From the IMG/VR virus record IMGVR_UViG_3300044801_000394, positions 5,955 to 69,954 of that record: a stretch of DNA of 64,000 nt; one strand, written 5' to 3'. Below are positions 6,530-45,694 of this stretch, piece by piece. Source of the stretch: a virus. The notes under the pieces are model-generated. The model saw only the letters and a list, made by a program, of their open reading frames with translations, searched no databases and was not told the DNA's origin. A program made the position numbers and the translations under genes. Position 1 is the first letter of the stretch, and the number at the start of each line of letters is the position of its first letter.

Positions 6530-6545
6530 AAGGATATTATATAAC

Positions 6546-29395: not shown

Positions 29396-29399
29396 TCAC

Positions 29400-30596
29400 A
29401 TGGACCTGCAGTTTTCTAAGAGTAATACTATTAGTGTCTATTACTCAGCCGTAGGTCTCACAGGTCCTAGCGGTTTTAGCAGGATTACGGGAGAAAAACA
29501 GTATTCAGTGGATCTTGGTACGATCCTGTATAATAATTCTTTTTTGAAGTTGAACAGTTTGGTTATCCCGCTAAAAGATCAGATTTTTTTTGATCCTGTT
29601 GCGGATAAAAATAAGTATGCAGCAGTAAATGTTTACTATGATGCGGAATATGGGCAGTTTGTTTTTGACAGGGTAGCTGTTTCCGATAAATATATAAGAA
29701 AATACACGGCTGCAGCTATTCCGAATGTCATACCAATAGCCCAGTTTATAATAAGGCAGGCACAGGAAAGCTTTGAGGTTATAAGCTATAATGAGTACTC
29801 TCAGATGTCGACGTTTACTATAACGGACGATTTTGAGCAGGGAGACACAGGGGTAGATCTTTTACAAGGGGATACAGGACCCTATGGTCCTACCGGACTG
29901 ATAGGGGATATGGGGTATACAGGACTGCCGGGAGATCCTGGGTTTATGGGTCTTACTGGTGTATCTTTACCAGGTAGTGCAGGAGAACAAGGAGGGACGG
30001 GTGTTTATGTGGACACAGATATGCAACTTTATCTCAAGTTTAAGACGGATGATCGAAGACAAACAGATTATTCCCCGTATGAAAGAGATTGTTTTTATAC
30101 TTGGACAGGTATATATCAAGATGGGACTCAGAAATCTTATTATTTAGTAGAACCGGGTCCTGTAGATAACTGTCACAATGTTGTATTTAACGGGGAATTT
30201 GCTGCGTATCGAAGGAATGAGTTCCTTGAGTTTGGAAGGGAAACCGGGACTATCTGTGCTTGGATAAGAACAACAGATAAACCAAGAGCCGATTTCACTT
30301 ATACTTACAAAGGGATAACGGGGATCTACGGGATTACTGGGGCTCCGATCTATGGAGTTACCGGGGCTTACAGAGTGTCTTTTAAGGATACATCAGGATA
30401 TTCGCCTACATCGTGGAAGTGGATAATAAACTATGATCCTTCTTATGAGGGGGAAGACCACGGTATAGTTTATACTATGCAAAATGTGTCCTATACGTTT
30501 CCCGGTATTACTGGGACTTATATAGTAAAGTTGGTAGCAGGGAATCTTAACGGGTCTTCGGAAATAGTTCATTTTATTAACTTACCTTTACCTTAA
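29400..30596 (+). CDS. Collagen-containing tail appendage protein with N-terminal half of a LamG-like domain and a PKD domain
   Basis: 398 aa. Gly-X-Y run at 29841-30002; LYLKF...TICAWIR; PRADF...VSFKDTS...SWKW PKD motif. Confidence 0.75.
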   Translation: MDLQFSKSNTISVYYSAVGLTGPSGFSRITGEKQYSVDLGTILYNNSFLKLNSLVIPLKDQIFFDPVADKNKYAAVNVYYDAEYGQFVFDRVAVSDKYIRKYTAAAIPNVIPIAQFIIRQAQESFEVISYNEYSQMSTFTITDDFEQGDTGVDLLQGDTGPYGPTGLIGDMGYTGLPGDPGFMGLTGVSLPGSAGEQGGTGVYVDTDMQLYLKFKTDDRRQTDYSPYERDCFYTWTGIYQDGTQKSYYLVEPGPVDNCHNVVFNGEFAAYRRNEFLEFGRETGTICAWIRTTDKPRADFTYTYKGITGIYGITGAPIYGVTGAYRVSFKDTSGYSPTSWKWIINYDPSYEGEDHGIVYTMQNVSYTFPGITGTYIVKLVAGNLNGSSEIVHFINLPLP

Positions 30597-30622
30597 ATAT
30601 AAAAATCAAAAGGAGCTTTATT

Positions 30623-31042
30623 ATGGCCTCACAAGTTCGTTTAGCCAATGAAACGGTATCAATTGAAGCTGCTGCTCTCAACGCTCAATTCAACGGAGCA
30701 ATTTTACAGATTATGGACGGTATCCAACCTGTTAATGGGGACACAGGACCGATTGGAAACACATTAGTTGGGTATACTTTGCCAAATCCTTGTTTTATAA
30801 CGGGCATAAACGGAGTGCTTATGTCAGACACTATAACACCCGAAGCTGCACAGAATTCGGGTACAGCCACATGGTTCAGGATTACGAGTCATATAGGCTT
30901 TGGACCGTACTATCCTCCTCTTATGGACGGAAGTGTTGGTGTGTCAGGCTCTAACTGTGATTTAATTCTTAATAGTACGGCAATTATAGATTCGGCAATA
31001 GTTACTTTAACGTCATTCACGTACACTGTTACCAAACAATAA
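30623..31042 (+). CDS. Small virion structural protein
   Basis: 139 aa with AAGGAG RBS. GTATWFRI...DGSVG motif is common in small phage tail proteins. Confidence 0.65.
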   Translation: MASQVRLANETVSIEAAALNAQFNGAILQIMDGIQPVNGDTGPIGNTLVGYTLPNPCFITGINGVLMSDTITPEAAQNSGTATWFRITSHIGFGPYYPPLMDGSVGVSGSNCDLILNSTAIIDSAIVTLTSFTYTVTKQ

Positions 31043-31072
31043 TTTTGTTGTATTTAGAATAAGGTAACGTAT

Positions 31073-32278
31073 ATGGGATATATAGGATATATAGATACTT
31101 TTCAGCCAAAACAATCTGTTAATTTGTCAGGCTATACTTTTTATGGCTCGATAAATATTTTGCAGAAAAAGCAGGTTGCAAGTATATCTGGTACAAATTT
31201 TTATGGATCAGTAGCTGTGTTTCAGAAAAAGCAGGCTACAAGTATATCCGGTACAAATTTTTATGGAGCAGTAAATACCTCGCAGAAAAAGCAATCCACC
31301 AATATATCAGCAGTAATGAGTCCGCCAGCTGCTTCTACTCTCGTATCCCCACTAAACGGGGCAACAGGAGTTTTTAGATCTCTAACGTTTACGTGGAACT
31401 CGTCAGCCGGAGCCGCAACATATGAACTTCAGATATCTACAGAAAATACTTTTACGACCGGAGTTGTGTACGATAAAAGCGGAATCATTACAACTTCTCA
31501 ACAGGTGACGGGGTTATCAGCTAGTACACAGTATTACTGGAGAGTTGGTGCCACTAATGGGGCTGGTACGACCTGGTCAACTTCGTGGCCGTGGAATTTC
31601 ACAACGGGGTATGTAGATTTTTCTGCTGTTGTTGCAGGACATCCACCAAACAGTCCTCATGAAGGAGACGGATCCGTTCAGTTTGGTTATACGGGTGCAT
31701 ATACTTCTATTACTTCCTATGTTTGGAATTATGGAGATGGTAGTAGAGCAAGCTACATTTTTAATCCTCCACCTTCTCACGTATATCCATCTTCCAACGT
31801 ATATTCAGTCTCTTTAACAGTTAGCAACGGTATGTACTCGGATACCATTATAAAGTATAACTACATAATAATAAACGAATTACAGGCTTCATCAGAAAGC
31901 ATAATCATAGAGTCTTTTGAAAATAGCAGCAGCAGAGATTGGAAATTTTATGTAGATGATATGGGACATCTTTCTTTTGATATTGGTGCAGATACCTTCA
32001 GGTCTACTAATCCAGTCGTTAATTTGGGGGTATGGACTTTAGTCGAGTTTCATCCTGGTAGAAATAAAATGTATGTTGCATCAGTAGGCAACGGAAGAAA
32101 AGAAGTACCTTGTTATTTGTCCACCACGGGAAGTACAGGCATGCATATGGAAGACAAAATATATATCGCTGAAAATTCGAATATGAAGATAGACGAACTT
32201 AAAGTTACAAAAAAAGATTTGAATTTAGACTCCTATTTTAGATCTCTCCAAGGTACTGTATACTACCTTCCTAAATAA
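31073..32278 (+). CDS. Appendage protein: 20-aa repeats, FN3-like, PKD and C-terminal half of LamG-like domain
   Basis: 401 aa. LSASTQYYWRV (FN3), YVWNYGDG (PKD), GVWTLV...IDELKV (LamG C-terminal part). Confidence 0.75.
   Translation: MGYIGYIDTFQPKQSVNLSGYTFYGSINILQKKQVASISGTNFYGSVAVFQKKQATSISGTNFYGAVNTSQKKQSTNISAVMSPPAASTLVSPLNGATGVFRSLTFTWNSSAGAATYELQISTENTFTTGVVYDKSGIITTSQQVTGLSASTQYYWRVGATNGAGTTWSTSWPWNFTTGYVDFSAVVAGHPPNSPHEGDGSVQFGYTGAYTSITSYVWNYGDGSRASYIFNPPPSHVYPSSNVYSVSLTVSNGMYSDTIIKYNYIIINELQASSESIIIESFENSSSRDWKFYVDDMGHLSFDIGADTFRSTNPVVNLGVWTLVEFHPGRNKMYVASVGNGRKEVPCYLSTTGSTGMHMEDKIYIAENSNMKIDELKVTKKDLNLDSYFRSLQGTVYYLPK
31081..31310 (+). repeat. About four imperfect 60-bp in-frame tandem repeats
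   Basis: Units align at 60-nt period (ttatgg...cagaaaaagca...agtatatc.ggtacaaattt), encoding YGxxxxxQKKQxxSISGTNF. Confidence 0.9.
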
Positions 32279-32351
32279 CAGTTTCCCGCATAAGCTATTA
32301 ATATTTTCCGTCTAATGTAGTAGGTATATCCTATAAAAGGGCATAAGCATA

Positions 32352-33428
32352 ATGTTTTTAAATCCTCCAGGGTATATAGGTTTTAATGCAGATGTTCAAG
32401 CCGGATCAGCGCCGCTTACTGTGACGTTTAGTCCAGCTATTTATGTCCGTCTTAAACCTGTTTCTTATGTGTGGATTTTTGGAGATGGTTTTAAAAGTTC
32501 AAAGAAAAATCCAACTCATACATATACTGTAGGGGGAGATTTTGATGTAGAACTGATAGTTACTTTTGAAGACGGATCACAAAGTGATCTAATACAAACT
32601 CCCTATATAAAAATAGTTAGACTAATAGTATCTGTTTTAGAACAAAGTGGGCAGGCTCCTTTTACCACTAAATTTTATGTAATTCCAGATCTACCAGAAA
32701 ACGTTGCCATTACCTCTTATGATTGGAATTTTTCCGATGGGTCTGCCCATGCCACCGGTGTGGATATTGTTCATACCTTCATAACAAAAGGGGAGTATTC
32801 TACCGACATAGTAGGAGGTCTAACAGGGACAGGAACAGGGGGCTTAACAGGGGTAGAGAACTTAACAGAGGTAGACAGTAGCATAGAAATTTCTGCAACC
32901 CAACCCTCTATAAAATACAGCAATATGTTTTCGTGCCTGGGATGGATCAAAAAGCCTCTTGTTGATGATCAAAGTACTTTAATTTGTTTGGCGATAGCAG
33001 ATCCTTACAACAATGTAATAGGAGTAGATACATCTATAAAATTTGAAATAATGAGAGACGGATTCGACTACAGACTGTTACATTTGGGGTCTAAGTCAAA
33101 GCTAATAGGTAAAACTTTAACAATAGTTTTAAATGACGGTACCTGGCATTGTGTAGCCTATGAGTGTGATAATAGCGGGACGATGACCTTCTATGTAGAT
33201 GGAGTATCTTTACCTGCAGAAGATGGTATAGGTACTGATGGAATAGCTTTTAATAAAGCACACTCAGTACACGAAAGAATGGGCGGTGGCCCGGTGTGGG
33301 CTCCTTATCTATACGAACTCAGTCAAAGTATCTATTTGTATAATTGGAGATATGGAAAGAATTTTAATCTAGGGCAAAGTTGGATCAATTCCTTAGTAGG
33401 AATAGATAAAACTTATCTGAATATCTAA
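32352..33428 (+). CDS. Two PKD domains plus LamG/ConA-like domain protein
   Basis: 358 aa. GSAPLTVTF..WIFGDG..NPTHTY; WNFSDG; DGTWHCVA...FYVDG. Confidence 0.8.
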   Translation: MFLNPPGYIGFNADVQAGSAPLTVTFSPAIYVRLKPVSYVWIFGDGFKSSKKNPTHTYTVGGDFDVELIVTFEDGSQSDLIQTPYIKIVRLIVSVLEQSGQAPFTTKFYVIPDLPENVAITSYDWNFSDGSAHATGVDIVHTFITKGEYSTDIVGGLTGTGTGGLTGVENLTEVDSSIEISATQPSIKYSNMFSCLGWIKKPLVDDQSTLICLAIADPYNNVIGVDTSIKFEIMRDGFDYRLLHLGSKSKLIGKTLTIVLNDGTWHCVAYECDNSGTMTFYVDGVSLPAEDGIGTDGIAFNKAHSVHERMGGGPVWAPYLYELSQSIYLYNWRYGKNFNLGQSWINSLVGIDKTYLNI

Positions 33429-33440
33429 ATAGGATTTAAA

Positions 33441-33923
33441 ATGTCGATTATAAATCACACTAATTTAATAGCAAATTTTTTTGTTCTACCTTACTTCTCG
33501 TTGAGCATTTCAACGAGCCCAAGAGAGGGAAGGATACCCCTTACAGTGGTTATTACTGGTGTTTCCAGTAGTCAGGTGAATACTTGGAATTGGTTTATAA
33601 ACGGTATCCAACAAATAGAAACTACTCAGCAAATTAATAGAACTTTCACACAAAAGGGACAATATCTATTACAACTAGTGGCGACGGATATTTATTCTCA
33701 AGGACCTTTGACTGTGTATAACTCTGTTGTGGCCACAAGTAACCTCGCCGTTTTAGATAGCGCTTTAGACGATATGGATCCAAATAGAGTAGTTGAGTTA
33801 GCAGGTTCGGCGGATTTCCTTTATGATGGAAAAGGGATAGGAGTAAAAACTCCTATCTACAGCACTAGTTTCAATAATGCAGGGTTTTCACACGCTAGTG
33901 GTCCAGATATAATATTCAGCTAA
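33441..33923 (+). CDS. PKD-like domain protein
   Basis: 160 aa. SPREGRIPLTV...WNW...TFTQKGQY. Confidence 0.7.
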   Translation: MSIINHTNLIANFFVLPYFSLSISTSPREGRIPLTVVITGVSSSQVNTWNWFINGIQQIETTQQINRTFTQKGQYLLQLVATDIYSQGPLTVYNSVVATSNLAVLDSALDDMDPNRVVELAGSADFLYDGKGIGVKTPIYSTSFNNAGFSHASGPDIIFS

Positions 33924-33933
33924 AGAGAAGAAG

Positions 33934-34578
33934 ATGCTTAAGACTAAAAACAATACTGTACGAGCCAATGTTCAGCAAAACATAACAGATACTTCTGTTG
34001 TAATAAGCTCAGGGTCTCTCGTATTTGATAACAAGTGGATAGACTATCCAGGCACTGTTTTTAATGTTCAGGATTATATAAATTCCCAAATAAGTGCTGG
34101 ACGAACACGATTTTTTAACGGGCTTAATTATGCAGTCTGTCTTATAGTTGGTGTCGGTATCACTGGGGAAATAACGGTAGTGGAAGGGGCACAAGTCCTC
34201 TATACTACTTTAGCATCTGTTCCGGTACCTCCAACTTTTTCTATTATACCTTTAATTGGTATAGTTCTGATCCAAGACGGCACTTCCGACGTGAATGCTG
34301 GAGTAAAGCCACTAAAAAATAACAATGTAATTTATTTCTCTGGAATGGGAAACGTAATAGATAAGAATATAAAAGGTACCGATGGAGCAACCGGTTTGTT
34401 AGGAGTACTAGGATCTAGTGGTGAAACAGGGCTAATTGGAGAAGACGGTATCACCGGTTTAAACGGTATCATGGGAACCACAGGTCCTATGGGTTTTGGT
34501 ATTATAGGAGCACAAGGAGCCCAGGGGATGACGGGCATAAATTGGGATATACATATTTTGTTTGATCATTTAATCTAA
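33934..34578 (+). CDS. Collagen-containing appendage protein
   Basis: 214 aa. Gly-X-Y run at 34375-34536; N-terminal domain paralogous to 34592. Confidence 0.75.
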   Translation: MLKTKNNTVRANVQQNITDTSVVISSGSLVFDNKWIDYPGTVFNVQDYINSQISAGRTRFFNGLNYAVCLIVGVGITGEITVVEGAQVLYTTLASVPVPPTFSIIPLIGIVLIQDGTSDVNAGVKPLKNNNVIYFSGMGNVIDKNIKGTDGATGLLGVLGSSGETGLIGEDGITGLNGIMGTTGPMGFGIIGAQGAQGMTGINWDIHILFDHLI

Positions 34579-34591
34579 AACGACATATCTA

Positions 34592-35608
34592 ATGGGACTT
34601 ATTACTAGAAAAAATCAGCCTTTTACCACGGTATCAAAAAATAGTGCGATACAGGGTGATAATATTGTCTTCATCAAGGGCGGATCCACTATAATAGGGG
34701 ACACCTGGGTCCAGTTTAATGATATAAGAGTATACATCAAAGATCTGGTAGATAGTTTTATTGCAAGCTCAGCTAGAAGAGTTTTCAATGTTAAAAACGG
34801 AGTCTTATATGTACTTATTACAGTCGATAAAGACAGCAGACTAGAAGTAGTACCTAGTGTATCTCTTAATCAGACAGTTGCAGGTAATGTAAAAGTTTTC
34901 TCCTCGTTGTCTGGTAGGTTGCCCCTTATTTTGGTGCAACTAGTTCAGGACGGGTCAGATAATTTATCCAGTTACCTTCCAATTACAAGTTCCAGTTATG
35001 AAGTTTTTAAAGGATATGGAAATTTTACTTTATCTGGTAATCAAGGAGAAACAGGTCCTCAAGGAGATACAGGTTTAGAGGGTTTAGAAGGTCTCTCAGG
35101 TATTACTGGATTAATTGGTTTTGAGGCAGCTGAGTCTAATATAGTTCAAGATAGTGTAGAAGAAGAAAATGACATTTGGATATGTGTGGTGGGGTATAGC
35201 GGTGTTATTCAGAACACAGTTAATTATTCAATTACTATTGGACCAGAAGGTCTTAGAGGTGCTACGGGGATTGTAGGCGATACTGGGATACAAGGTTCTC
35301 TTGGAGTATCTATAGCGAGATTTGTTCATAACAGACCTGTAGATCCTGTAGCAGATTTTTCTGGGTATCCTTTGACTGGAGTAGTTGGTTTATCAGGAGT
35401 CCAGTTTACAAATTTGTCTACAGGATCCTGGGATAGTGCATTATGGGTTTTTGGAGATGGCAATAGCTTTATAGACAATAGTCAGGGGATTACTGGTCCT
35501 GTTCATTATTATGGCGAGACAGGGACTTATGATGTAATTCTCTATTTATATAGTATTGATTATGAGGTTCATAAAACTAAATACGACTACATAACGGTGA
35601 CTAGTTAA
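34592..35608 (+). CDS. Collagen-containing appendage protein with C-terminal PKD domain
   Basis: 338 aa. Gly-X-Y at 35036-35311 interrupted by 38 aa; PVADF...FTNLSTG...WVFGDG. Confidence 0.75.
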   Translation: MGLITRKNQPFTTVSKNSAIQGDNIVFIKGGSTIIGDTWVQFNDIRVYIKDLVDSFIASSARRVFNVKNGVLYVLITVDKDSRLEVVPSVSLNQTVAGNVKVFSSLSGRLPLILVQLVQDGSDNLSSYLPITSSSYEVFKGYGNFTLSGNQGETGPQGDTGLEGLEGLSGITGLIGFEAAESNIVQDSVEEENDIWICVVGYSGVIQNTVNYSITIGPEGLRGATGIVGDTGIQGSLGVSIARFVHNRPVDPVADFSGYPLTGVVGLSGVQFTNLSTGSWDSALWVFGDGNSFIDNSQGITGPVHYYGETGTYDVILYLYSIDYEVHKTKYDYITVTS

Positions 35609-35624
35609 TACAAGGAGTTCGACA

Positions 35625-36200
35625 ATGTCAGATACAGGGGTCTTAAAACACATCATACAGATTAATGATCTAAGAAGCAATTTAGATCAGGGTCTTAGTG
35701 GGGCTGGGGATACTGAGCTAAAAGTTAATCAGATAGCAATAGCTTTGGGTACCACAGGCTATAGACTTTTGTATAGAGATGAGTTGGGTGGGGCACATGA
35801 TGTTGCTAATTTAGATGATATTGGATCAGGGCCTGCAGGAGCTACTGTAGGAAACATTAATCTGTCTTTTGGAACTACAGGTACTGTAATCAGTACGGGT
35901 ATCAAAGCAGATGTTACCCTTCCTTTTAATTTAGCATTTACATCGTGGAGAGTAGTAGGGCAACCAACAGGATCTGTACTGTTTACCTTAACAAGTTATT
36001 CTTATGCAAACTATCCTTATACTGGTACTGGACATATGATACCAGGTTATACAGGTCCTTATGTTAATAATGATTTCAAGAATCAAGCGACAAGTTTAGT
36101 GGGGTGGACTGGCTCTTCTGGTGACATCCTTGAGATAGTAATAGATTCTTGCTCTAATTTCAACAACCTTTCTTTGTCTTTGGGATATAGTAAAGTATAA
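35625..36200 (+). CDS. TG-rich tail-associated protein
   Basis: 191 aa with AAGGAG RBS. Beta-rich C-terminal domain and many TG motifs. Confidence 0.65.
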   Translation: MSDTGVLKHIIQINDLRSNLDQGLSGAGDTELKVNQIAIALGTTGYRLLYRDELGGAHDVANLDDIGSGPAGATVGNINLSFGTTGTVISTGIKADVTLPFNLAFTSWRVVGQPTGSVLFTLTSYSYANYPYTGTGHMIPGYTGPYVNNDFKNQATSLVGWTGSSGDILEIVIDSCSNFNNLSLSLGYSKV

Positions 36201-36277
36201 AGAGGAAAATGTCTAATGTTCGTGGTACACAAAGCAGTTGAGAGTTATTTGAAAGATAAAAACAGTAGGTACTAATT

Positions 36278-36949
36278 GTGATAAAACTAGTGACAAGGTA
36301 TAAAGATAGAAGACCATTTTTAGAAAGAACTATACATACATGGTTAAGAAATCCATTTTATCAAGAAATAATAATTGTTGATTGGTCGTCAAGTGATGAT
36401 ATTGTTCCATATCTGAAAACCTTGAATGATTCTCGATTGACAGTATTAAGAGTTAAAGGACAGAAATATATAGATCGCGGCGCTGCTTGGAATGTTGGGA
36501 TAAAATATGCAGACAGTACATGGATTCATGCAGTTGATTGTGATGTGATGGTAAGACCAACAATTTATGAAAATGTTGATTTCTCAAATCTAAATACTTT
36601 TTATATGAGTAAGGAGTGCAGTGCTGTTCGTGGTTCATGTCTTTTCCCTAAATATGCTTGGAGACTGGTCAATGGATATATAGAGGGTTTGAAATCTTTT
36701 GGAGCGGAAGATCCATTGTTTTATGAAAATCTTGAATTGATAGGATTAAAAGAGAATAATATATTTACAGCAAGAGATTTATTTCATATTACTCACGGTG
36801 ATTACATTCGACAGCAAAATCATGAAGTAATATATAAAGGTAGTAACTGGATGGGTGATGCACACAGAACAAATTGGCGTTTAGCACATGAATTAAATGA
36901 TCCTAAACGACAGTTGAAAAAATATGAGACAGAAATAATTAAATCATGA
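36278..36949 (+). CDS. GT-A fold glycosyltransferase (GT2/GT7-like)
   Basis: 223 aa, GTG start. IIIVDWSSSD, AWNVG, DCD (DxD), and NGYIEGLKSFGAED resembling the GT7 C-terminal motif. Confidence 0.85.
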   Translation: MIKLVTRYKDRRPFLERTIHTWLRNPFYQEIIIVDWSSSDDIVPYLKTLNDSRLTVLRVKGQKYIDRGAAWNVGIKYADSTWIHAVDCDVMVRPTIYENVDFSNLNTFYMSKECSAVRGSCLFPKYAWRLVNGYIEGLKSFGAEDPLFYENLELIGLKENNIFTARDLFHITHGDYIRQQNHEVIYKGSNWMGDAHRTNWRLAHELNDPKRQLKKYETEIIKS

Positions 36950-37941
36950 AAATCTTATTGATTTCAACACCTTGGCTTCCAACACCCCCAATAACTCACG
37001 GGGGTGTAGAAAGAGATGTTGCTTGTCTGGCAAAAGAATTTGTAAAATTAGGACATATTGTAACTATTATTGCTGCAAAAGGAAGTAATGTACCTGGTTG
37101 TAAAATTATAGAAGCGTATAACCGCAAGGAAAACGAACAAGTATTAGACCAGATTGTTTTTTGGCGAAATGTTATTCAATACATGGAAAGTAATAAGCAC
37201 GATGTTGTTAATTCTCATACTTCTTTACTTAATATGCCTTATGATACTATAAATGATTTATCCCAAAAAAGACTGTGTGTGTCAATACACTATGAGGAAA
37301 GAGTTGCGCCAAGAAACAATATATTCATATCAGAAGCACAACAAAAAGCCTTAAAATCGTGTGCAAAATACATTCATAACCCGATTGACGCTAATATTTA
37401 TACATTTTGTACAGAGAAAGATAATTACTTTACATTTGTTGGAAGGATTCATTTTGAAAAGGGTGCTGACATAGCAATTAAAATCGCTAAAGACACTAAT
37501 GTTCCATTGAAACTTGCTGGGAACATAGATGATAAAATTTTTTTTGATACAAAAATTTCTCCTCATCTTAATAATAGTATACAATATGTGGGAGAAGTCA
37601 ACGATCAACAAAAATCTGATCTTTTATCAAAATCAAGGGCAGTATTGTATCCGACAAGAGTAAACCCTGAAGCATTTGGCCTAGTACCACTTGAGGCAAA
37701 TGCCTGTGGCACACCAGCAATAGCTTTTCGCAGCGGCGGCCTAAAAGAAGTCATTAAGGATGGAGAAACAGGATTTCTTGTTGATACTATTGGAGAAATG
37801 ATTGCAGCAGTAACAAAAGTTAAAGACATTGATCCTGTTATTTGTAGAAAATGGGTAGAAGACAATTTTAAACCAGAAATTATTAGTAACAAATATCTCC
37901 AGCTATATGAAGAGTTAATCAATGGAAACAATTGGGGTTAG
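36946..37941 (+). CDS. GT-B fold glycosyltransferase, family 4
   Basis: 331 aa. PPITHGGVE, GRIHFEKG, EAFGLVPLEANACGTP. Confidence 0.92.
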   Translation: MKILLISTPWLPTPPITHGGVERDVACLAKEFVKLGHIVTIIAAKGSNVPGCKIIEAYNRKENEQVLDQIVFWRNVIQYMESNKHDVVNSHTSLLNMPYDTINDLSQKRLCVSIHYEERVAPRNNIFISEAQQKALKSCAKYIHNPIDANIYTFCTEKDNYFTFVGRIHFEKGADIAIKIAKDTNVPLKLAGNIDDKIFFDTKISPHLNNSIQYVGEVNDQQKSDLLSKSRAVLYPTRVNPEAFGLVPLEANACGTPAIAFRSGGLKEVIKDGETGFLVDTIGEMIAAVTKVKDIDPVICRKWVEDNFKPEIISNKYLQLYEELINGNNWG

Positions 37942-37944
37942 ATT

Positions 37945-38484
37945 ATGAAAATATTTATGCCAGTTCCAGCTGATAGACCTGTTACTGCTGAAATTCTGGC
38001 GTCTATTAAGAAGCAGGGTATAGAACCGGAAATAATAGATTGTACCTTTGATGCGAAGAAGTTTTTTAAGCCACAAAGGTTGGTCTTATCCGAAAAAAAA
38101 TTCAAGGAAGTAGCGTTAAAATGTACTGATGAATTTATTGTATATCAGCAATGTGATATTTTGCATCTTAGGGATGATAATATATCCGTTATGCAAACAT
38201 TTTTAACAAGTCATCCTGATTTTGGGGCGGTTGCTTTATCAAGATATAGAATAAATTCTAAATTAGTTTATGATCCTGCAGAGAAAAATACAATTATTAG
38301 TGGATGTGTAATGTTTACAAGAAAAGGACTTGAAGCAGTAGAATTTGAAGAGCCAGATGAAATAAGACAACCTACTTCTAAGATTATTGCGAGTTCTTTG
38401 AATAAAGCAGGATTAAAATATGGATATGTAGATGATATAATGAGAGTACAACATCCAAGTATGAACTTTTTCTACCGAGGTTAA
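37945..38484 (+). CDS. Divergent GT-A-like glycosyltransferase
   Basis: 179 aa. EFIVYQQCDI at the DxD position, DFGAVAL, GCVMFTRKGL; adjacent to two glycosyltransferases. Confidence 0.5.
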   Translation: MKIFMPVPADRPVTAEILASIKKQGIEPEIIDCTFDAKKFFKPQRLVLSEKKFKEVALKCTDEFIVYQQCDILHLRDDNISVMQTFLTSHPDFGAVALSRYRINSKLVYDPAEKNTIISGCVMFTRKGLEAVEFEEPDEIRQPTSKIIASSLNKAGLKYGYVDDIMRVQHPSMNFFYRG

Positions 38485-38485
38485 A

Positions 38486-40066
38486 ATGCCTTATTACGAC
38501 ATATCTTTAGATACTTATGGAAGTGGAACTACGGGTGATCCCTACGGATGGCCAGCCGCTATGGATGATGGTAATCCTGACGTATGTTGGAATGGTTATG
38601 GAAACCAAACCTATTATGTCCGTGGTGAGAGACATCTTGCATCTGGTTCCATTGGAATAGGTAATAGCTATTGCGGGGCTGGTTATGTATTTAGACCGTG
38701 GAACCTTAGTTTGTACGGACCTTGGAGAATTGGAGTAGATTCTGGTTCTATACAATTATTTGGAGGAAATGAAACTGTCGGTGATATTTTAGATGGTGCT
38801 ATTCTGAAAGCAGGTAGTGTAACTATTGATGGATCCTATTCTAATATAAATATCTACCGAACAACCATAATAGCGGATAATATAAATTTATGGAATAATT
38901 ATGGTTATGAAGGCTACGATTACACTCACTACTATGGCTGTTCTTTTATAGCCTCTAACAGTATTAACTTTAACACCTTATGGAAACCCTACGGTACACA
39001 ATTTATAGATTGTATCTTTAAATTTTCCTCCGCTTTATTTGATCCATATGATACTCAAGGTAGTATTCTATCTTTTATTAATTGTGCAATGCCTTCTCCA
39101 GTTACTTTTGATAAAGGTCAAAGTATTATTCCTAGTAGTTATTCAAATGTTAATGATATTTTTATAGTTGGAGGTATTGTTAGTAAATTCTATACTTCAG
39201 ATGGTTCTGATACTCAGGATAGTGGATTAACAACAATTAAGGGTAGTTCTTTATTACCTGGAGACGTTTTTGCTTCAAGTTTTAATTTTGCAGGTGCTAA
39301 TTTATCTCCTTCTGGATATTCTTTAGCTGATTTTTTAACTCATTATAATCTTCATAATGGAGATGCTTTCACAATTGATGGAACAGATACAACAGGCGGA
39401 GATTTTCTTACTGCAAAAGGTTCCGCTCTGGCACAGGGAGATATATTTTATACCTATGGAGGTTCTGTTACTTATACAACTGACTTCTATGTTGGTTATG
39501 TAGGTAATTTACTTTATAATGCTGGTTGCCAAACTGATTGGATTCCAACAACATGGCCTGAATGGAATGATAACATAAAAGCACATTGGTCGCATGATAT
39601 TTTAGCAGTTGGAATTTCAACACCACCAGAACCAGGTGCTGGGTATCCTACTTATTCTGGATATGCAACCGGAATGTTTGGTGAAGCAAGAACAGGTATT
39701 GGATTTTTATATTTCAAAAATGTCATATATTATATCAACGCAAATCCAACAAGTACACCCGACGGTCTAACGCCAGATACAGGTTATCCTAGTTTTAATG
39801 ATTTAATATCCAATATAACTCTTGAGGATTATTTTATCATTATAGTTGTTGACAATGGAATAATAAATGAACCTTTAACATCTGTATCTTTTCCTTACGC
39901 TATTTTGATAATACAATCATGGACATCAAATTTAAATAAACCTACGGTGCAGTTAGGTGATGGTCTTACTTTTAATAAACCACCATTTGAGTTAAGTGAT
40001 ATTAATTTTATCCGTAGGGGGGGAAGACTTGGAATAATAATAGTAAGGGATAGTCCGCCAGAATAG
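38486..40066 (+). CDS. Beta-helix-like adhesin/tailspike-type protein
   Basis: 526 aa. GTTGDPY start motif, FIDCIF/FINC beta-helix-like rungs, and a second YYINAN..DGLTPDTGY start motif near the C-terminus. Confidence 0.55.
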   Translation: MPYYDISLDTYGSGTTGDPYGWPAAMDDGNPDVCWNGYGNQTYYVRGERHLASGSIGIGNSYCGAGYVFRPWNLSLYGPWRIGVDSGSIQLFGGNETVGDILDGAILKAGSVTIDGSYSNINIYRTTIIADNINLWNNYGYEGYDYTHYYGCSFIASNSINFNTLWKPYGTQFIDCIFKFSSALFDPYDTQGSILSFINCAMPSPVTFDKGQSIIPSSYSNVNDIFIVGGIVSKFYTSDGSDTQDSGLTTIKGSSLLPGDVFASSFNFAGANLSPSGYSLADFLTHYNLHNGDAFTIDGTDTTGGDFLTAKGSALAQGDIFYTYGGSVTYTTDFYVGYVGNLLYNAGCQTDWIPTTWPEWNDNIKAHWSHDILAVGISTPPEPGAGYPTYSGYATGMFGEARTGIGFLYFKNVIYYINANPTSTPDGLTPDTGYPSFNDLISNITLEDYFIIIVVDNGIINEPLTSVSFPYAILIIQSWTSNLNKPTVQLGDGLTFNKPPFELSDINFIRRGGRLGIIIVRDSPPE

Positions 40067-40074
40067 GAGATAAA

Positions 40075-40362
40075 ATGACTAATATTAAAAGATGTATTTT
40101 TAACGATATATACATACAAACCGAAAATCCTTCGGATTTTTATGTAATAAATAGCATTTTTGATGCACATGCAGATACATTACCTTATTTTATATTGTTT
40201 AATGGAGAGTCAAAGGGAATTTTTGCTTGCAATAATGATTTCTACAATCTACCTACTGTTGCAGCTATAAAAGTTGTTGGAACTGTTAGAACAGCTAGAA
40301 TTCTTAATAACAATTTTGAATTAGTTGGATTTGCAGTTGATGCAAATGAGGTTACAACATGA
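40075..40362 (+). CDS. Short beta-helix-rung protein
   Basis: 95 aa with AGGAG RBS. INSIF, CNNDF, LNNNF rungs. Confidence 0.55.
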   Translation: MTNIKRCIFNDIYIQTENPSDFYVINSIFDAHADTLPYFILFNGESKGIFACNNDFYNLPTVAAIKVVGTVRTARILNNNFELVGFAVDANEVTT

Positions 40363-40703
40363 AACCATTTTCTTATGGCCCAAGCACAGACTTTTTAATA
40401 GACAATAATATAACATATGAAGCATCTGATGATCCTTTCCGTTGCAGCGATCAAGTTCATGTAGGAGTTTTTAATCAAATAAATATTGATCCGTTATTAG
40501 TGGATCCAGCAAGCGGTGACTTTAAATTGCAAACAGGAAGTCCAGCTATTGGTGCGGGTGTTGACAATATTCACGAACCATCTGTTCCAACAGACGATAT
40601 TATTGGAAATCCAAGAACACCAAATACTGATAGTGGAGCATATCAATATATTCCAAGTGGGGCTGCTCCTCATGAAGATATAAATATTGTGATGATCTAT
40701 TAA
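40359..40703 (+). CDS. Beta-helix C-terminal cap (choice-of-anchor Q-like) protein
   Basis: 114 aa. DPLLVDPASGDFKLQTGSPAIGAG...DIIGNPR...DSGAYQY. Confidence 0.7.
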   Translation: MKPFSYGPSTDFLIDNNITYEASDDPFRCSDQVHVGVFNQINIDPLLVDPASGDFKLQTGSPAIGAGVDNIHEPSVPTDDIIGNPRTPNTDSGAYQYIPSGAAPHEDINIVMIY

Positions 40704-40741
40704 CAGAACATGATATATAATTTTAGTTAGGAACAAATAAA

Positions 40742-43700
40742 ATGGCTGATCTCTCTACCTCTTCTTATAATCAACAGGAGAGGGTCGGAAGAAAAAGATT
40801 CGAATCAGGAATCGAGTTTGAAAAGATTGTCCTCAATCTTGCTCGAACGATTCAGGATCGTTTACTCCAAAATTTACCTAGCAACTATCCTCAGGATCCA
40901 AATACAAATCTGGCTGAGATTTTCAGGGCTATCTCCGAAGAGTTCGCACGGCTTCAATCTTCTATTTCCGATGTAAACGAGGATCAGTATCATGTTAGTA
41001 TTAAAGCAGAGTATCTCTATCAAATCTTGGGGGATACTTTGTTTCTGGACAACAAAGCTATAAACTATAACATCTCCGATGCTGCTTATAGAGATTTCTT
41101 GATAAATGTGAGAAATGCCTACTACGGTGGAAGCCGAAAAGACAACATTGAACAGTCTGTTTCGGATATTTTAGGAATACCTGTAACCATAAAAGAGCTC
41201 TATTTAGACCTCAGAGAAGAAAACACTTCCGTTACAATTAAAGATACTCATAAGATGTTTTGTGACATCCTTATGGACTATGTATCCTCTACCTCTGTAG
41301 GTCTGTTGCTGGAAAATCTCAAATTCTTTTTGGATCTTATCAAACCTGCCCACACCCTATATGACACTCGTTTGATCTGGACAGATACCATACAGACACA
41401 AAATAATGCCTGTACACCAGTTTATGCTGAGACAGGAGCTCTATCCGAGATAATCTATGGCGTAGATAAAATCGACATGGTTACGTCAGTAGACGATAGA
41501 CTATATAGGATCACCGGAGCATATATAGATCCTAAAGAAAGTTGGACAACTGGTATTGTATCTTCCATAGACGAAACAAAAGGAATACTCTATTTAGAAG
41601 ATAAAACTATCCTAGTTTGTACAGATACCTCTAAACTCTATGAAAGAGCGTACGAAGACGCTGGCGTTACTGGTTTCTATACCGCTTCAGATTCAACTAT
41701 CTTGTTGGGATCTCTAAACCCTGGAGACGATATCTTCTATTATGCCACTCAAGATGGCCCAAATTCTTCATCGGTTATAACAAGTGATTGGCTCTACACC
41801 GGGATAGTAGGGTTAACTGCTGGGATCGATACCAGCAATGAAACAATAACTCTGACCTCAGGGCAAATCCTTGTCTACAACAAGGATGTTTTAGTATACA
41901 CAAGGGATAAAAACGGAGAGTATAGAATCTTTGTATCAGGCCTTACTGGAGGACAAGAGATAGCTTTTAGAGGAACAGAGTATTCACAGCTTCTTCAATT
42001 CTACAACGTGCCAGAAGCGGTGAAAGAAAACCCTTATAAACAGTTCGATCCTGAAGTCATGGAAACTCCGTACTTCCAGGGTAACGTTAAAAAAGTCCTA
42101 GAAACACGAGAAGAAGGTCTTACTGGCTTATCCGTAGGACCTCACGTTATAGTTGAAGATGGAATAGTTAAAGTAGTTGATGTAGAGAGTAAATTCTATA
42201 AGAGAGAAAACTCAGTAGCATGTAAACCATTCAAGGTACACAGATACAATCTTTTTATAGATGAAGTATTTAAGGATCAGTTTTCAATAGAAGAACCTGA
42301 TCCAGAGATAACAGAGGATGAAGCTTTACTGGTTTTTGGAAACATGCCAGGAGAGTCTGGATTAGGCCTGACTGGTTTGAATTATAACATAACAATAAAC
42401 GAAACTAGTCAACTAGAGGAGACTTCCGAAGAGCCTACAGTCCAAAGTATAGGTGTAACCGGCCATACAGAAATGTGCGACAGGAAAGCCGAGTGCCAAT
42501 TAGTCCCTTACTATGAGGATACGCGAAAGTACTATGATTTTCCAGACATACAGCTTACCTCTGGTTTCATAACTACAGTTATTCTACCGGTCCCTTATGG
42601 TGTAACAGGACTGGAACTTCCAGCTTATTTCACGATATCTAATGATCCTAATAGCTATGTAATGCCATGTCTTCCTATTTTAAACAGTGATGGAGAACCA
42701 GCAGAACCAGAAGATTTAATAGTCTATATAAATGGATTACAGGTTTTAGACGCCGTAAACAGTGTAAAGCCTTGGACTGGCGAAGTAGATCTTAATTTTT
42801 TACCTCCAGCTAATTCTAAAGTCAGGGTAGACTATTACTATTCAAACAGATATCCTGCCCCACAAACATACATAGAGCATGTAGGTCAGACTTTATCATC
42901 TCAACGTCTACAGTGGCCGTATCCGATAGTCGAGACGGGACTATATGGAAACTCTCAGGATTTCCAAGTAGACAAATATCCAATTTTGAATCAACGAGGT
43001 CAATTAGCGAATCCTTGTGATATAATGACCTCTATAGGAAGTCTCGATGTTACTGGGAACATTATTGGTGTCACAGGCTGTGGGATAACAGGTTTGGATA
43101 AAAGTGTCCTTATATCAGACTCTTCAGTTACGGGAATACACGCAGGGGATACCTTAGTAATAGATGCTGAAAGCTATTTCAATACTACTCTCATATATAC
43201 CACAACAGGAATAATAGGCTATAACTATATAGTACTAAATAAAAATTTTGGAGTACCAATAGATCCTGCAGGATTCCCGTACGAATCAGTTAGCTTTACT
43301 GGTGCCCCTACAGGAACAGTAGAGTGTGTAAGACCTATCCTAGGACATATCCACCTAACAGGAGCTCCAGCCTTAGGATCTTTTGTTAAGTTCGACTATT
43401 ACTACAACGTTTATAACAGGACTTATACCTTTGTCCCTGATGTTGGAGTCACTGGTCCCTACATGAATCAGGGCTATGCCTCTGATACGTTTTATGGAAA
43501 CTACAATGGATTTACCCTAGTACCAGATGAAGGTTTTACTGGATATCAGAATCCTATTTTTGATTACAACCAAGTAGAAAAAATAGGGTACCGTTACAGG
43601 GTTTTCAACCTTTCAAACAGTTCCGTTTTGAATTCAAAAGATACCTTGGTATTAGACGGATATTATAGGAATAGTGGAGAAGCTTCCTGGGCTAATAATC

Positions 43701-45040
43701 ACAACAAGCTTAATCAGTACAATCTTCTGTTCAGCCCAGAGTACCTAACTGATCAGGATCAAAATGTTATTCTAAATGATAAATATTTAGAAAAGAATTT
43801 GGATCCCGTCACTAAACTCTATCCTGGTTCGGTACCTTTCGTAGCAACATTCACCGATGATGGTCGTTTTCGTAATAATACCTACCCAGAGAGTACAAGT
43901 ACTTATATAGAACCTACAGTTACAACACATGATATCTCTGCAGGATTTACGATTGTTGGTGCGGACGATTCTGGGCTAATAGATTATAAACCTATATGTG
44001 AGTACGAGAAGAACAGGAAGATAAAGCTTTACTCGGCTCTTAAAATAGTAGAGCAAGATTTTGAAGGATTCGATGGTCCTCTTTCTACAATATCTGAGGG
44101 ACAGAGGACGATTCCTTTCTCAGTAACGTATATAGATCAATACTACCCAAGCAGAGAATTGAGACTTAATGACTATTTGGATTATATAAATCGTGTCCCT
44201 GAAGAAGGAGCTACCGGTGTTTTGAGGATCATGAGAAACTCAAAGGTAGCTAAAAGGGTAAAGGGGATATGGAGAAATTTAAAAATAGGGGACATGTTCA
44301 ATGTTAATACTTCCCCTTATACTCATTATTATACCGTTATAGAAAGAATCGATAGTGATACTGTTTTATTTAGTACCAATTTTAAGGAAGCTTCTGGAGA
44401 GTATATCTATAATTTGTATCGGGATACTGTTTACCAGACTGATGTGTCTTTAGATGAGGTCACCAGAGAACTAGTTCTCAATGGAATAAGCGATCCTTCC
44501 TATGGTTTGACAGGTTTTCCAGGAAATGGAGACACAGGGATAAATTTTGGTATCCATTTTCCTGACCCAAGTCTTTCTGCACATCCAAGAAGTCCGTACA
44601 ACCCCAACATCACCGGCTTGCCTACTGGTGATAGATTCCTTCTTCTCGTGACAGGTCCCCCTGCCTCAAGTCTAACAGGTCCAAGATATGTACCCCTAAC
44701 TAGGGAAATCATAGATGCTGATGGAAACACTGTGTATTACACCGGCATGCTATCGGGATATACAGGTCCAAGTGGAGCACTAAATTTAGGGTTGACAGGA
44801 CCGACAAGAGACAATAATCCTAGAACGTTAGAAGGTGATGACAAGTATTTCATACCCTCTGGAGACTCTGGGATATTCTGGGCATACAGCGAATCTGAGT
44901 ATCGTGTAAATTGGCGGAACTGGGATCAGGCTATCATGATAATACATGGGTCAAGCGGAATGGCAGGGTTGACAGGTCCAGATAAGCTATGGGTACAAGG
45001 GATAACAGGATCACCAGAATGGGGAATCAAAATAATCTAA
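40742..45040 (+). CDS. Baseplate wedge gpI/gp7-like protein with long GxTG-rich extension
   Basis: 1432 aa. LLQNLPSNY and IKPAHT motifs typical of tail protein I-like wedge subunits; about 34 TG dipeptides by hand count. Confidence 0.7.
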   Translation: MADLSTSSYNQQERVGRKRFESGIEFEKIVLNLARTIQDRLLQNLPSNYPQDPNTNLAEIFRAISEEFARLQSSISDVNEDQYHVSIKAEYLYQILGDTLFLDNKAINYNISDAAYRDFLINVRNAYYGGSRKDNIEQSVSDILGIPVTIKELYLDLREENTSVTIKDTHKMFCDILMDYVSSTSVGLLLENLKFFLDLIKPAHTLYDTRLIWTDTIQTQNNACTPVYAETGALSEIIYGVDKIDMVTSVDDRLYRITGAYIDPKESWTTGIVSSIDETKGILYLEDKTILVCTDTSKLYERAYEDAGVTGFYTASDSTILLGSLNPGDDIFYYATQDGPNSSSVITSDWLYTGIVGLTAGIDTSNETITLTSGQILVYNKDVLVYTRDKNGEYRIFVSGLTGGQEIAFRGTEYSQLLQFYNVPEAVKENPYKQFDPEVMETPYFQGNVKKVLETREEGLTGLSVGPHVIVEDGIVKVVDVESKFYKRENSVACKPFKVHRYNLFIDEVFKDQFSIEEPDPEITEDEALLVFGNMPGESGLGLTGLNYNITINETSQLEETSEEPTVQSIGVTGHTEMCDRKAECQLVPYYEDTRKYYDFPDIQLTSGFITTVILPVPYGVTGLELPAYFTISNDPNSYVMPCLPILNSDGEPAEPEDLIVYINGLQVLDAVNSVKPWTGEVDLNFLPPANSKVRVDYYYSNRYPAPQTYIEHVGQTLSSQRLQWPYPIVETGLYGNSQDFQVDKYPILNQRGQLANPCDIMTSIGSLDVTGNIIGVTGCGITGLDKSVLISDSSVTGIHAGDTLVIDAESYFNTTLIYTTTGIIGYNYIVLNKNFGVPIDPAGFPYESVSFTGAPTGTVECVRPILGHIHLTGAPALGSFVKFDYYYNVYNRTYTFVPDVGVTGPYMNQGYASDTFYGNYNGFTLVPDEGFTGYQNPIFDYNQVEKIGYRYRVFNLSNSSVLNSKDTLVLDGYYRNSGEASWANNHNKLNQYNLLFSPEYLTDQDQNVILNDKYLEKNLDPVTKLYPGSVPFVATFTDDGRFRNNTYPESTSTYIEPTVTTHDISAGFTIVGADDSGLIDYKPICEYEKNRKIKLYSALKIVEQDFEGFDGPLSTISEGQRTIPFSVTYIDQYYPSRELRLNDYLDYINRVPEEGATGVLRIMRNSKVAKRVKGIWRNLKIGDMFNVNTSPYTHYYTVIERIDSDTVLFSTNFKEASGEYIYNLYRDTVYQTDVSLDEVTRELVLNGISDPSYGLTGFPGNGDTGINFGIHFPDPSLSAHPRSPYNPNITGLPTGDRFLLLVTGPPASSLTGPRYVPLTREIIDADGNTVYYTGMLSGYTGPSGALNLGLTGPTRDNNPRTLEGDDKYFIPSGDSGIFWAYSESEYRVNWRNWDQAIMIIHGSSGMAGLTGPDKLWVQGITGSPEWGIKII

Positions 45041-45109
45041 ATAGCTCTAATACTCTCTTAATTTATTTACATATATAGGGGCACTATCAAGTGCTTAAGG
45101 AGCCAAACT

Positions 45110-45685
45110 ATGTTTAAAGAGTTTTTGGAAAAAGGCCTGAAGCAACTTCTTCGGGTGGTTACTGGAATAAAATATGAGGAAGAGACTAAGAAAATGAAGG
45201 GTGAGCTTTTCTTGTTCCTTAGGGAAAAAGGGAAGCTGATCAAGGTCATACACCAGTCTAATATCATAGTCAATACTGCGTCTGTTCTTATAGCCCGTCT
45301 ACTCAAGGACAGTCACGAACCTACTGCAGGTATATCCTATTTGGCTGTAGGAAGCGGTGACGATGCCTGGGACCCTTATGATCCTCCTGCTCCTACGACC
45401 TCACAAACTATGTTAGAAAGTGAATTCTTCAGAAAGAACATATCAATTGCCACGTTTATAGATCCTCAGACAGCAGAGCCCACTGAAAACGATACAAACA
45501 TCGTAGACTATGCCACTACTTTCTCGGAAGCAGAGGCTGTTGGACCAATCATGGAGCTAGCTTTATTTGGTGGGGATGCTGATTCGACATATGGGACTGG
45601 TACAATGGTAAACTGGAGAACATTCCCGGTGATAAACAAGACAAATGCGATGACTTTGACTATTATTTTCAGGATTACGGCTTAA
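45110..45685 (+). CDS. Baseplate/tail-collar fibre-attachment protein
   Basis: 191 aa. ISYLAVGSG, EAVGPIMELALFGG, FPVINKT motifs; AAGGAG RBS. Confidence 0.65.
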   Translation: MFKEFLEKGLKQLLRVVTGIKYEEETKKMKGELFLFLREKGKLIKVIHQSNIIVNTASVLIARLLKDSHEPTAGISYLAVGSGDDAWDPYDPPAPTTSQTMLESEFFRKNISIATFIDPQTAEPTENDTNIVDYATTFSEAEAVGPIMELALFGGDADSTYGTGTMVNWRTFPVINKTNAMTLTIIFRITA

Positions 45686-45694
45686 GGATAATCA

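Follow-up and report, generated by a model that had tools for sequence, protein, structure and literature searches.

Does the tetrapeptide G-x-T-G (GxTG) mark threonines for glycosylation on the tail of a phage, and if so, by which enzymes? The question is raised by a stretch of 64,000 nucleotides (nt), here called the window, which comprises bases 5955-69954 of the 69,954-base-pair (bp) IMG/VR virus record IMGVR_UViG_3300044801_000394. Its tail-appendage operon encodes fibre-like proteins and a baseplate wedge protein of 1432 amino acids (aa), many of them studded with GxTG, and a cassette of three glycosyltransferase genes is embedded between them. The initial annotation combined these observations into one system, with GxTG as an acceptor sequon spread over exposed baseplate and fibre proteins. 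Thr O-glycosylation at GxTG, on collagen-like and non-collagen tail proteins, is the best reading of our comparisons, a tentative one to which we grant somewhat less than an even chance. The cassette of the window probably does not contain the initiating enzyme.

GxTG in the proteins of the window

Forty-one plus-strand open reading frames (ORFs) of the window were translated and each was shuffled 500 times. In the wedge protein 34 TG dipeptides are found where 9.8 are expected (z 8.5), and 17 GxTG where 0.8 is expected (z 19). The 398-aa protein has 14 TG and 11 GxTG, the latter against an expectation of 0.4 (z 16.5). GxTG occurs six times in the 214-aa protein, seven times in the 338-aa protein and four times in the 191-aa protein, which has 9 TG; the 358-aa protein has 5 TG. 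The Baseplate J protein (1122 aa; PF04865, E 1.8e-13) has 5 TG and not a single GxTG, the structural proteins of 1456 and 1115 aa lack the motif altogether, and the replication proteins have 0 or 1 copy apiece, no excess over shuffles. The hand counts of the initial annotation for the wedge, 398-aa and Baseplate J proteins were exact on recount, and the lack of enrichment in Baseplate J and the replication proteins was rightly seen. The region to which the system had been confined, positions 29400-45040, is indeed enriched, but a 3616-aa protein encoded outside of it is enriched as well (Table 1).

The leading dipeptide of the wedge protein is TG with a z of 8.7, the runner-up reaching 3.8. 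Among its 27 tetrapeptides of the form G..G the third residue is Thr in 17, Ser in 4 and any other residue in the remaining 6. The codons of the motif are mixed, as had been remarked before, and similar to those used elsewhere in the wedge gene; a search of the window for a dispersed DNA repeat under the motifs found none. An origin at the DNA level is ruled out by the mixed codons and the lack of long direct repeats, the sole tandem duplication being one of 24 nt. The data support the conclusions that the motif acts at the protein level, with Thr preferred to Ser, and that it is confined to tail-appendage proteins.

Collagen-like runs and isolated copies

About half of the GxTG in the window belong to plain collagen triplets of the G-x-T type, in the fibre proteins of 398, 214 and 338 aa. 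The G-x-Y runs of these proteins measure 66, 56 and 63 residues, respectively, and contain most of their GxTG; the Pfam family Collagen (PF01391) is matched with 23.8, 29.9 and 28.5 bits at a cut-off of 27.2. This part of the signal is a protein of a known kind because, according to PMC8968730, Thr is the predominant residue at the Y position of bacterial collagens.

The wedge protein has only 30 residues in G-x-Y runs. G-x-Y runs of at least three triplets were removed by masking, and copies of GxTG outside such runs are called isolated. In the wedge protein 14 isolated copies remain, with 0.66 expected and none of 500 shuffles reaching 14. The 3616-aa protein has 8 against 1.16 expected, also reached by none of 500 shuffles. 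Isolated copies are further found in the 398-aa (3; 0.08 expected), 191-aa (3; 0.26), 338-aa (2; 0.11) and 401-aa proteins (3; 0.29, reached by 4 of 500 shuffles). The enrichment over composition-shuffled controls consequently survives collagen masking. The claim that the motif is dispersed is borne out by the isolated excess in the wedge protein, but much of the signal of the 398-, 214- and 338-aa proteins lies in collagen-like G-x-Y runs.

Two stretches had been assigned to folded domains, and both assignments have to be revised. Near the C-terminus of the 398-aa protein an insertion of about 15 aa, GIYGITGAPIYGVTG, is missing from all three homologs and coincides with a 24-nt tandem duplication at 30323-30368, by which it was made. 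It had been placed inside a PKD domain; Pfam finds no PKD in this protein. The L009 homolog has its own larger, YTG-rich insert at a different site. In the 358-aa protein the linker is GGLTGTGTGGLTG and a TG cluster occupies residues 158-166; the stretch VGGLTGTGTGGLTGV, supposedly in a loop of a folded domain, sits between the PKD and Laminin_G_3 matches and is thus a linker.

The 214-aa protein has homologs in nearly all related loci. The C-terminal part of the 338-aa protein has a PKD-like match, with PKD_4 and PKD below their cut-offs. In the relatives, homologs of the 191-aa protein possess (G-x-T-G-x-Q)n stalks with 57-120 GxTG each. The 3616-aa protein matched no Pfam or PHROG family; its counterpart in the related record G004, paired by position, has 3248 aa (332111-341857).

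Turnover of the motif in the wedge protein

The N-terminus of the wedge protein matches the baseplate protein family phrog_1160 (E 4.3e-10) and, weakly, Pfam Phage_Mu_Gp48 (E 8.8e-4). A database search returned 40 homologs, and the 29 full-length ones were aligned. When all gapped tetrapeptides of the form a.bc with an expected count of at least 5 are ranked over these 29 proteins, G.TG is at the top: 258 copies against 15.1 expected, about 17-fold, the next motif reaching 6-fold. G.SG is found 59 times against 15.2 expected.

GxTG occupies 72 columns of the alignment, 40 of them in a single sequence, 19 in two to four sequences and 6 in at least 15. Ten of the 17 motifs of the window protein are common to at most one of 28 homologs, and those at positions 310 and 461 are inserted and found in the window protein alone. 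Only T1265, T1341 and T1352, all C-terminal, are common to at least 17 homologs. The number of copies per aligned homolog ranges from 0 to 17. Six homologs have 0-2 (P0028, P0029, P0032, P0034, P0036 and P0040), and the lowest four, P0028, P0029, P0032 and P0034, are among the five most divergent. The contig with the P0028 gene measures 413 kb. Gains and losses occur at non-homologous positions, and therefore the alignment indicates a selected short linear motif, not a conserved structural element.

An AlphaFold model of wedge residues 215-960, built from an alignment of 26 sequences, has a mean predicted local distance difference test score (pLDDT) of 67.8. All ten GxTG of this segment are in predicted coil, the coil fraction of the segment being 0.56, and seven of the ten lie within blocks of pLDDT below 60. 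Of the TG dipeptides which lack the leading Gly, 6 of 12 are in strands. For residues 940-1432 the model is unusable (pLDDT 36.4) and six motifs are unplaced; T1158, the sole motif in a confident block, is at a loop-to-strand junction. A Foldseek comparison of the wedge model with the Protein Data Bank (PDB) gave no credible match, all template modelling (TM) scores normalised to query length being at most 0.11. The surface exposure presumed in the initial annotation agrees with the coil positions, as far as secondary structure can tell.

L007 / L039 has its wedge gene (9980-14629) in two parts, ORFs of 607 and 930 aa; the split could stem from a frameshift, from a stop codon or from faulty assembly.

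The glycosyltransferase cassette

The three glycosyltransferases reported inside the tail operon are confirmed, two by Pfam and the third by its fold in the ESM Atlas. The GT2-family enzyme has a DCD motif at residues 87-89 and no relative in the PDB at E <= 0.01. For the GT4-family enzyme the best solved relative is 7fg9, matched over the full length with E 1.9e-43, followed by tetrahydrobiopterin glucosyltransferases; 5ze7 was matched as well. 7fg9 is a glucosylsucrose synthase according to PMC9909042. Among the matches listed (105 proteins, the window's own included) only one homolog of the GT4 enzyme exceeds 35% identity. The 179-aa protein matched neither Pfam nor NCBIfam; its ESM Atlas model aligns to GT2-family clusters with TM-scores of 0.72-0.79, and it is probably a third glycosyltransferase.

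The cassette genes are on the same strand as the fibre genes and packed among them with gaps of at most 78 nt. The GT2 gene starts 78 nt past the 191-aa fibre gene and about 670 nt past the 338-aa collagen-like gene. The G+C content is 0.338-0.341 over 36-40 kilobases (kb) and 0.387 and 0.369 in the flanks. The 526-aa gene is entirely within the low-GC stretch, and the genes for the 95- and 114-aa proteins are just beyond. Only partial matches for the 526-aa protein were found, in four loci (among them L003, L004 and L015). The cassette is a later, lineage-specific low-GC insertion in the fibre operon.

No membrane-like segment was found in the six cassette-region proteins, in all of which the highest mean of 19 residues on the Kyte-Doolittle scale is at most 1.52. 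A Pfam scan of the cassette revealed no membrane-embedded transferase, flippase or polymerase, i.e., nothing of a lipid-linked system (Wzx/Wzy, oligosaccharyltransferase).

Directly upstream of the wedge gene the 114-aa protein (40359-40703, plus strand) has a choice-of-anchor Q domain (NCBIfam, E 1.5e-7) and matches, in part, the interior of a larger L035 fibre protein.

Related phages and their sugar genes

Related loci with wedge homologs were collected from 13 viral and 36 metagenomic sequences with at most 10 kb per side; several are redundant or short. Their full-length wedge homologs have 3-17 GxTG each. The record of the window is rated 15% complete by CheckV, which at 69,954 bp implies a genome of several hundred kb. 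The related record G004 has 466,729 bp and is rated 98% complete. The motif-bearing phages are a clade with genomes of roughly 460 kb.

The glycosyltransferase families PF00534/PF00535 are present in 8 of 14 records: that of the window and every related record of at least 131 kb, seven in number. The six records without them are fragments of 52-84 kb. The tail operon of G004 has a cassette of its own, between a collagen-like protein and PKD/collagen fibres and about 16 kb upstream of the wedge gene. Its proteins have no homology to the cassette enzymes of the window. Its composition (Table 1) suggests that a sugar is tailored or methylated, or that some other modification is made. Two lineages at least thus have sugar-enzyme genes within the tail operon, in cassettes which are not homologous.

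A Pfam scan covered 22 unassigned ORFs in 13 loci. In L016 the immediate upstream neighbour of the wedge gene encodes a sugar-nucleotide epimerase/dehydratase (E 2.9e-38), and a 286-aa ORF of L014 gave only sub-threshold hints of a GT-A fold. The remaining slots are occupied by fibre proteins of a lectin-like type, by a beta-helix protein or by an HNH endonuclease. Two candidate counterparts of cassette proteins were dismissed since comparison revealed no similarity: a 170-aa ORF of L016 for the 179-aa protein, and the 286-aa ORF of L014 for the GT2 enzyme. In the fibre operon of L012 an RRXRR/HNH endonuclease gene (5924-7282), which probably encodes a homing endonuclease, separates a collagen-like fibre gene from one for a lectin-like protein.

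The genome of G004 allowed a count over all 480 ORFs of at least 100 aa. It contains 568 GxTG, 493 of them in collagen-like runs. The excess of isolated copies is located in seven ORFs with at least three each. A 1332-aa protein that could be assigned to no known family has 10, the wedge protein has 8 and a 377-aa protein encoded beside the giant collagen gene has 5; the 3248-aa giant protein and a PKD protein have 4 each, and the other two are fibre proteins. G004 also has a second fibre module (31411-43806; L052, L053) with collagen-like proteins of 2561 aa (295 GxTG) and 694 aa (66 GxTG).

Six of the 14 records searched (G003, G004, G009, G010, where it is split, G011 and G013) possess a multi-domain glycosyltransferase of 1378 aa in G004. 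Besides a GmaR/SunS-like GT-A domain and the TPR repeats that follow it, the enzyme has one GT2 domain and two domains of the GT4 type. The copies of G003, G009, G011 and G013 are 52-58% identical to that of G004 over nearly the full length. The best matches of the N-terminal GT-A domain among PDB sequences are GmaR (E 2.1e-9) and SunS (E 1.3e-8).

Gene order and further observations

The long ORFs of the window are nearly all on the plus strand. The order from about 21.6 to 50 kb is Baseplate J, the 1456-aa protein with BNR repeats, a series of fibre-like proteins in which Collagen, PKD, fn3 and lectin-like matches were found, three glycosyltransferase genes, three genes of no assigned function and the wedge gene. 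Genes for a helicase, a primase-helicase and a DNA polymerase follow from 52 kb on (52-59 kb). A scan for promoters and terminators over 29000-46000 gave no excess over chance (50 sites where shuffles gave 58.9, and 12 where they gave 9.7).

The 1456-aa structural protein (25025-29395, plus strand) has four BNR/YCF48-like beta-propeller stretches (PSII_BNR, E 1e-24), and its lack of GxTG is observed despite adjoining enriched proteins. Inside the gene of the 401-aa protein, at 31162-31308 of the window, a 60-nt tandem repeat is present in about 2.2-2.5 copies with 80-83% identity.

Cultured relatives were sought by megablast and tblastn in 50,697 phage records; none was found. Viral contigs scanned with one protein at a time, namely the wedge protein, the GT4 enzyme and the low-motif homologs P0028, P0034, P0029 and P0040, gave no match, and scanning genome contigs for relatives yielded none.

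Table 1. Positions of the genes and cassettes discussed (window coordinates unless G004 is given)
Feature	Position	Strand	Remarks
3616-aa giant virion-module protein	6546..17396	+	9 GxTG vs 1.2 expected; upstream of baseplate genes
398-aa collagen-like fibre protein	29400..30596	+	11 GxTG, 8 in 66-residue G-x-Y run
401-aa fn3/PKD protein	31073..32278	+	Pfam PKD_4 and PKD above cut-offs; fn3 below
358-aa PKD and lectin-like protein	32352..33428	+	PKD_4 E 2.4e-21; Laminin_G_3 at residues 182-290, below cut-off
214-aa collagen-like fibre protein	33934..34578	+	6 GxTG, 5 in 56-residue G-x-Y run
338-aa collagen-like fibre protein	34592..35608	+	7 GxTG, 5 in G-x-Y runs
191-aa protein, short version of the relatives' long collagen-like fibre	35625..36200	+	4 GxTG, 3 isolated
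GT2-family (GT-A) glycosyltransferase, 223 aa	36278..36949	+	Pfam Glycos_transf_2 E 3.3e-8, above cut-off
GT4-family (GT-B) glycosyltransferase, 331 aa	36946..37941	+	Pfam Glycos_transf_1 E 4.9e-27
179-aa protein, GT-A fold, probable third glycosyltransferase	37945..38484	+	ESM Atlas model
Three genes (526, 95, 114 aa), no assigned function	38486..40703	+	between cassette and wedge gene
1432-aa baseplate wedge protein, Mu Gp48-like N-terminus	40742..45040	+	dispersed G-[LVIFYAD]-T-G
G004 cassette	G004 357435-363694 (L075:4435-10694)		TylF-like O-methyltransferase, two GT2-type, two radical SAM, 439-aa protein with glycanase-like C-terminus
1378-aa multi-domain glycosyltransferase	G004 289709-293845 (L076:3709-7845)

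Weighing the explanations

How could Thr O-glycosylation at GxTG operate in these phages? The motif is read here as a short linear motif selected on the outer tail apparatus, and it occurs in two settings: as the Y-position Thr of collagen-like fibre stalks, and scattered singly over the loops, linkers and small inserts of the wedge protein, the PKD proteins and the 3616-aa protein. Its Thr would be the acceptor, and soluble phage glycosyltransferases may add the sugar in the cytoplasm, before the tail is assembled or while it is being assembled. Initiation is more likely the work of the GmaR/SunS-like multi-domain glycosyltransferase with TPR repeats, which is conserved in the clade, than of the cassette of the window. 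The latter, consisting of GT2, GT4 and GT-A enzymes and inserted later, may extend or vary the glycan. A more specific proposal is a cytoplasmic, sequon-directed O-glycosylation of the clade's own: the GmaR/SunS-like TPR enzyme would read G-[hydrophobic]-T-G, the cassettes would diversify the glycan and the sequon would turn over in exposed loops. We consider this rather unlikely in its entirety. The protein-level Thr motif, its confinement to tail-appendage proteins, its coil positions and turnover, the sugar-enzyme genes in the tail operon of two lineages and the precedent of SgtA from C. difficile (see below) speak for the sequon glycosylation of the initial proposal, but the specific link to the cassette of the window is not supported.

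A number of observations weigh against glycosylation at GxTG. All that concerns the modification itself we infer. Homologs of the three cassette glycosyltransferases are present in none of the 49 related loci (ORFs, E <= 1e-4, at most 10 kb per side), yet the wedge motifs are there; therefore the motif is older than the cassette, the cassette cannot have created it, and the tie between GxTG and this cassette, on which the initial annotation was built, is not supported. Neither TPR nor any other protein-binding domain was detected in the cassette enzymes by the Pfam scan, the canonical DxD motif was not seen in the 179-aa protein, and the nearest solved relatives of the GT4 enzyme, judged by sequence, use the small-molecule acceptors sucrose and tetrahydrobiopterin. 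The GmaR/SunS-like enzyme has no match in the window's 69,954-bp record, itself only 15% complete. PMC12619734 describes glycosyltransferases as common in large phages generally, so their co-occurrence with the motif is weak evidence. Summed over the 480 ORFs of G004, isolated GxTG number 75, below a crude composition expectation of 88.5 which is inflated because Gly-rich collagen proteins are included. Bacterial collagens normally have Thr at Y, which can be accounted for without glycosylation (PMC8968730). Finally, the wedge model is only of moderate quality (pLDDT 67.8) and exposure is judged from secondary structure alone.

The main rival is a purely structural explanation, which we doubt but take seriously: GxTG would be collagen-derived or turn-forming, located in flexible loops and stalks and unmodified, and the cassette an unrelated moron which landed by chance in a permissive site of the tail operon and acts on host envelope glycans or on a small molecule. 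The Thr preference of bacterial collagens (PMC8968730) and the share of window motifs inside G-x-Y runs, about half, agree with it, as does the gain of one motif by a simple tandem duplication. So do the small-molecule acceptors of the GT4 relatives, the low G+C content of the cassette and its restriction to the phage of the window, and the variable slot upstream of the wedge gene, which in relatives is filled by lectin-like, beta-helix, HNH or sugar-enzyme genes. Yet a turn motif should be conserved in position or be present in all beta-rich proteins, whereas 40 of 72 columns are singletons and the Baseplate J, 1456-aa BNR and 1115-aa proteins lack the motif. A single G-x-T-G cannot form a triple helix, and no structural reason is apparent for the preference for Thr outside of collagen (17, with 4 Ser and 6 others). 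Also against this explanation, neither a membrane segment nor a flippase or polymerase was found in the cassette, and the same operon has received a non-homologous sugar cassette in G004 and a sugar-related gene in L016.

That the cassette glycosylates phage DNA, as a hypermodified base against restriction, and that the motif is unrelated, is in our view very improbable. According to PMC13326640, a DNA glycosyltransferase role has been proposed or shown in other phages for GT-B enzymes with predicted structures similar to 7fg9, 5ze7 and 6kih, and the GT4 enzyme of the window matches 7fg9 and 5ze7 by sequence. However, a thymidylate-synthase/hydroxymethylase (PF00303) was found in none of 5 records, the 98%-complete G004 included, as compared to 10 of 14 reference genomes used as a control. 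The cassette is positioned between fibre and wedge genes, away from the helicase, primase and polymerase genes at 52-59 kb, and is itself not conserved in the clade. More probable than this, though still improbable, is a target or handle for something other than sugar: another post-translational modification, e.g., by radical SAM enzymes, or a docking site for fibres or a host surface component. Two radical SAM proteins of the G004 cassette are weakly similar to peptide maturases, and the evolutionary signature indicates selection for the motif and does not name the selective agent. In the window, on the other hand, glycosyltransferases are the only modifying enzymes matched by family scans, radical SAM proteins being absent, and radical SAM proteins beside a TylF-like methyltransferase and glycosyltransferases fit sugar tailoring equally well. 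We know of no precedent for such a non-sugar modification at G-x-T-G, though no search aimed at one was made.

Significance

Phage virion glycosylation is documented mainly for the C-termini of capsid and tail-tube proteins of mycobacteriophages. Among bacterial O-glycosylation systems a defined short acceptor motif is rare, and several systems have none (PMC12645811). A full-text literature search, which returned mostly titles and the starts of abstracts, yielded neither a GxTG acceptor motif on phage tail proteins nor glycosylated collagen-like phage fibres. A motif of four residues would make the role of the many glycosyltransferases of huge phages directly testable. Should glycosylation be confirmed, phages would evolve glycan coats on their host-recognition apparatus, and the sequon would be usable as a portable glyco-tag; with a sequon-directed system the tail would gain a tunable sugar coat. 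Even if GxTG proves purely structural, no other short motif of these proteins is as over-represented or as mobile, and it would still call for an explanation.

Comparison with known systems

The closest precedent is SgtA of C. difficile, a GT-A enzyme with TPR repeats which in vitro transfers O-linked N-acetylglucosamine (GlcNAc) to Thr of G-x-T-G peptides (GATG, GPTG); its gene adjoins bclA3, and its substrate is the collagen-like BclA3 (PMC7157674). As in SgtA/BclA3 and in BclA of the B. anthracis exosporium, the collagen-like proteins of the window have Thr at Y, and as with sgtA a GT-A gene adjoins the gene of a candidate substrate. The GT-A enzymes of the window have no TPR, and a fusion of glycosyltransferase and TPR is found only in the 1378-aa enzyme of the relatives. 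Unlike in the BclA systems, the motif is on a phage tail rather than a spore coat and also occurs singly in non-collagen proteins.

The 1378-aa enzyme shares the order of GT-A domain and TPR repeats with GmaR, the O-GlcNAc transferase of Listeria flagellin. In GmaR the TPR repeats come after the glycosyltransferase domain, which is N-terminal, and the enzyme transfers GlcNAc to flagellin (PMC9638930). The N-terminus of the phage enzyme also resembles the GT-A domain of SunS, the peptide S-glycosyltransferase of SPbeta. Unlike GmaR and SunS it adds at least three further glycosyltransferase domains, and the antirepressor function of GmaR is lacking as far as tested.

With respect to phages, Freeman et al. 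reportedly found in 2023 that glycosyltransferases encoded by mycobacteriophages decorate their own virion, with glycans at the C-termini of capsid and tail-tube subunits. Here, in contrast, the candidates are fibres and the wedge protein, and the motif is internal and dispersed. The collagen-like tail fibres of phages and prophages are a further relative: G-x-Y runs, Thr or Gln at Y and PHROG matches to collagen-like minor tail and tail fibre proteins are common to both. These families account for the motifs within runs only, not for the isolated copies in the wedge, PKD and 3616-aa proteins. If the rather unlikely proposal of a clade-own, sequon-directed system should apply, the gain and loss of GxTG on phage fibres and baseplate could be likened to the gain and loss of sequons in the N-glycan shields of animal-virus envelope proteins.

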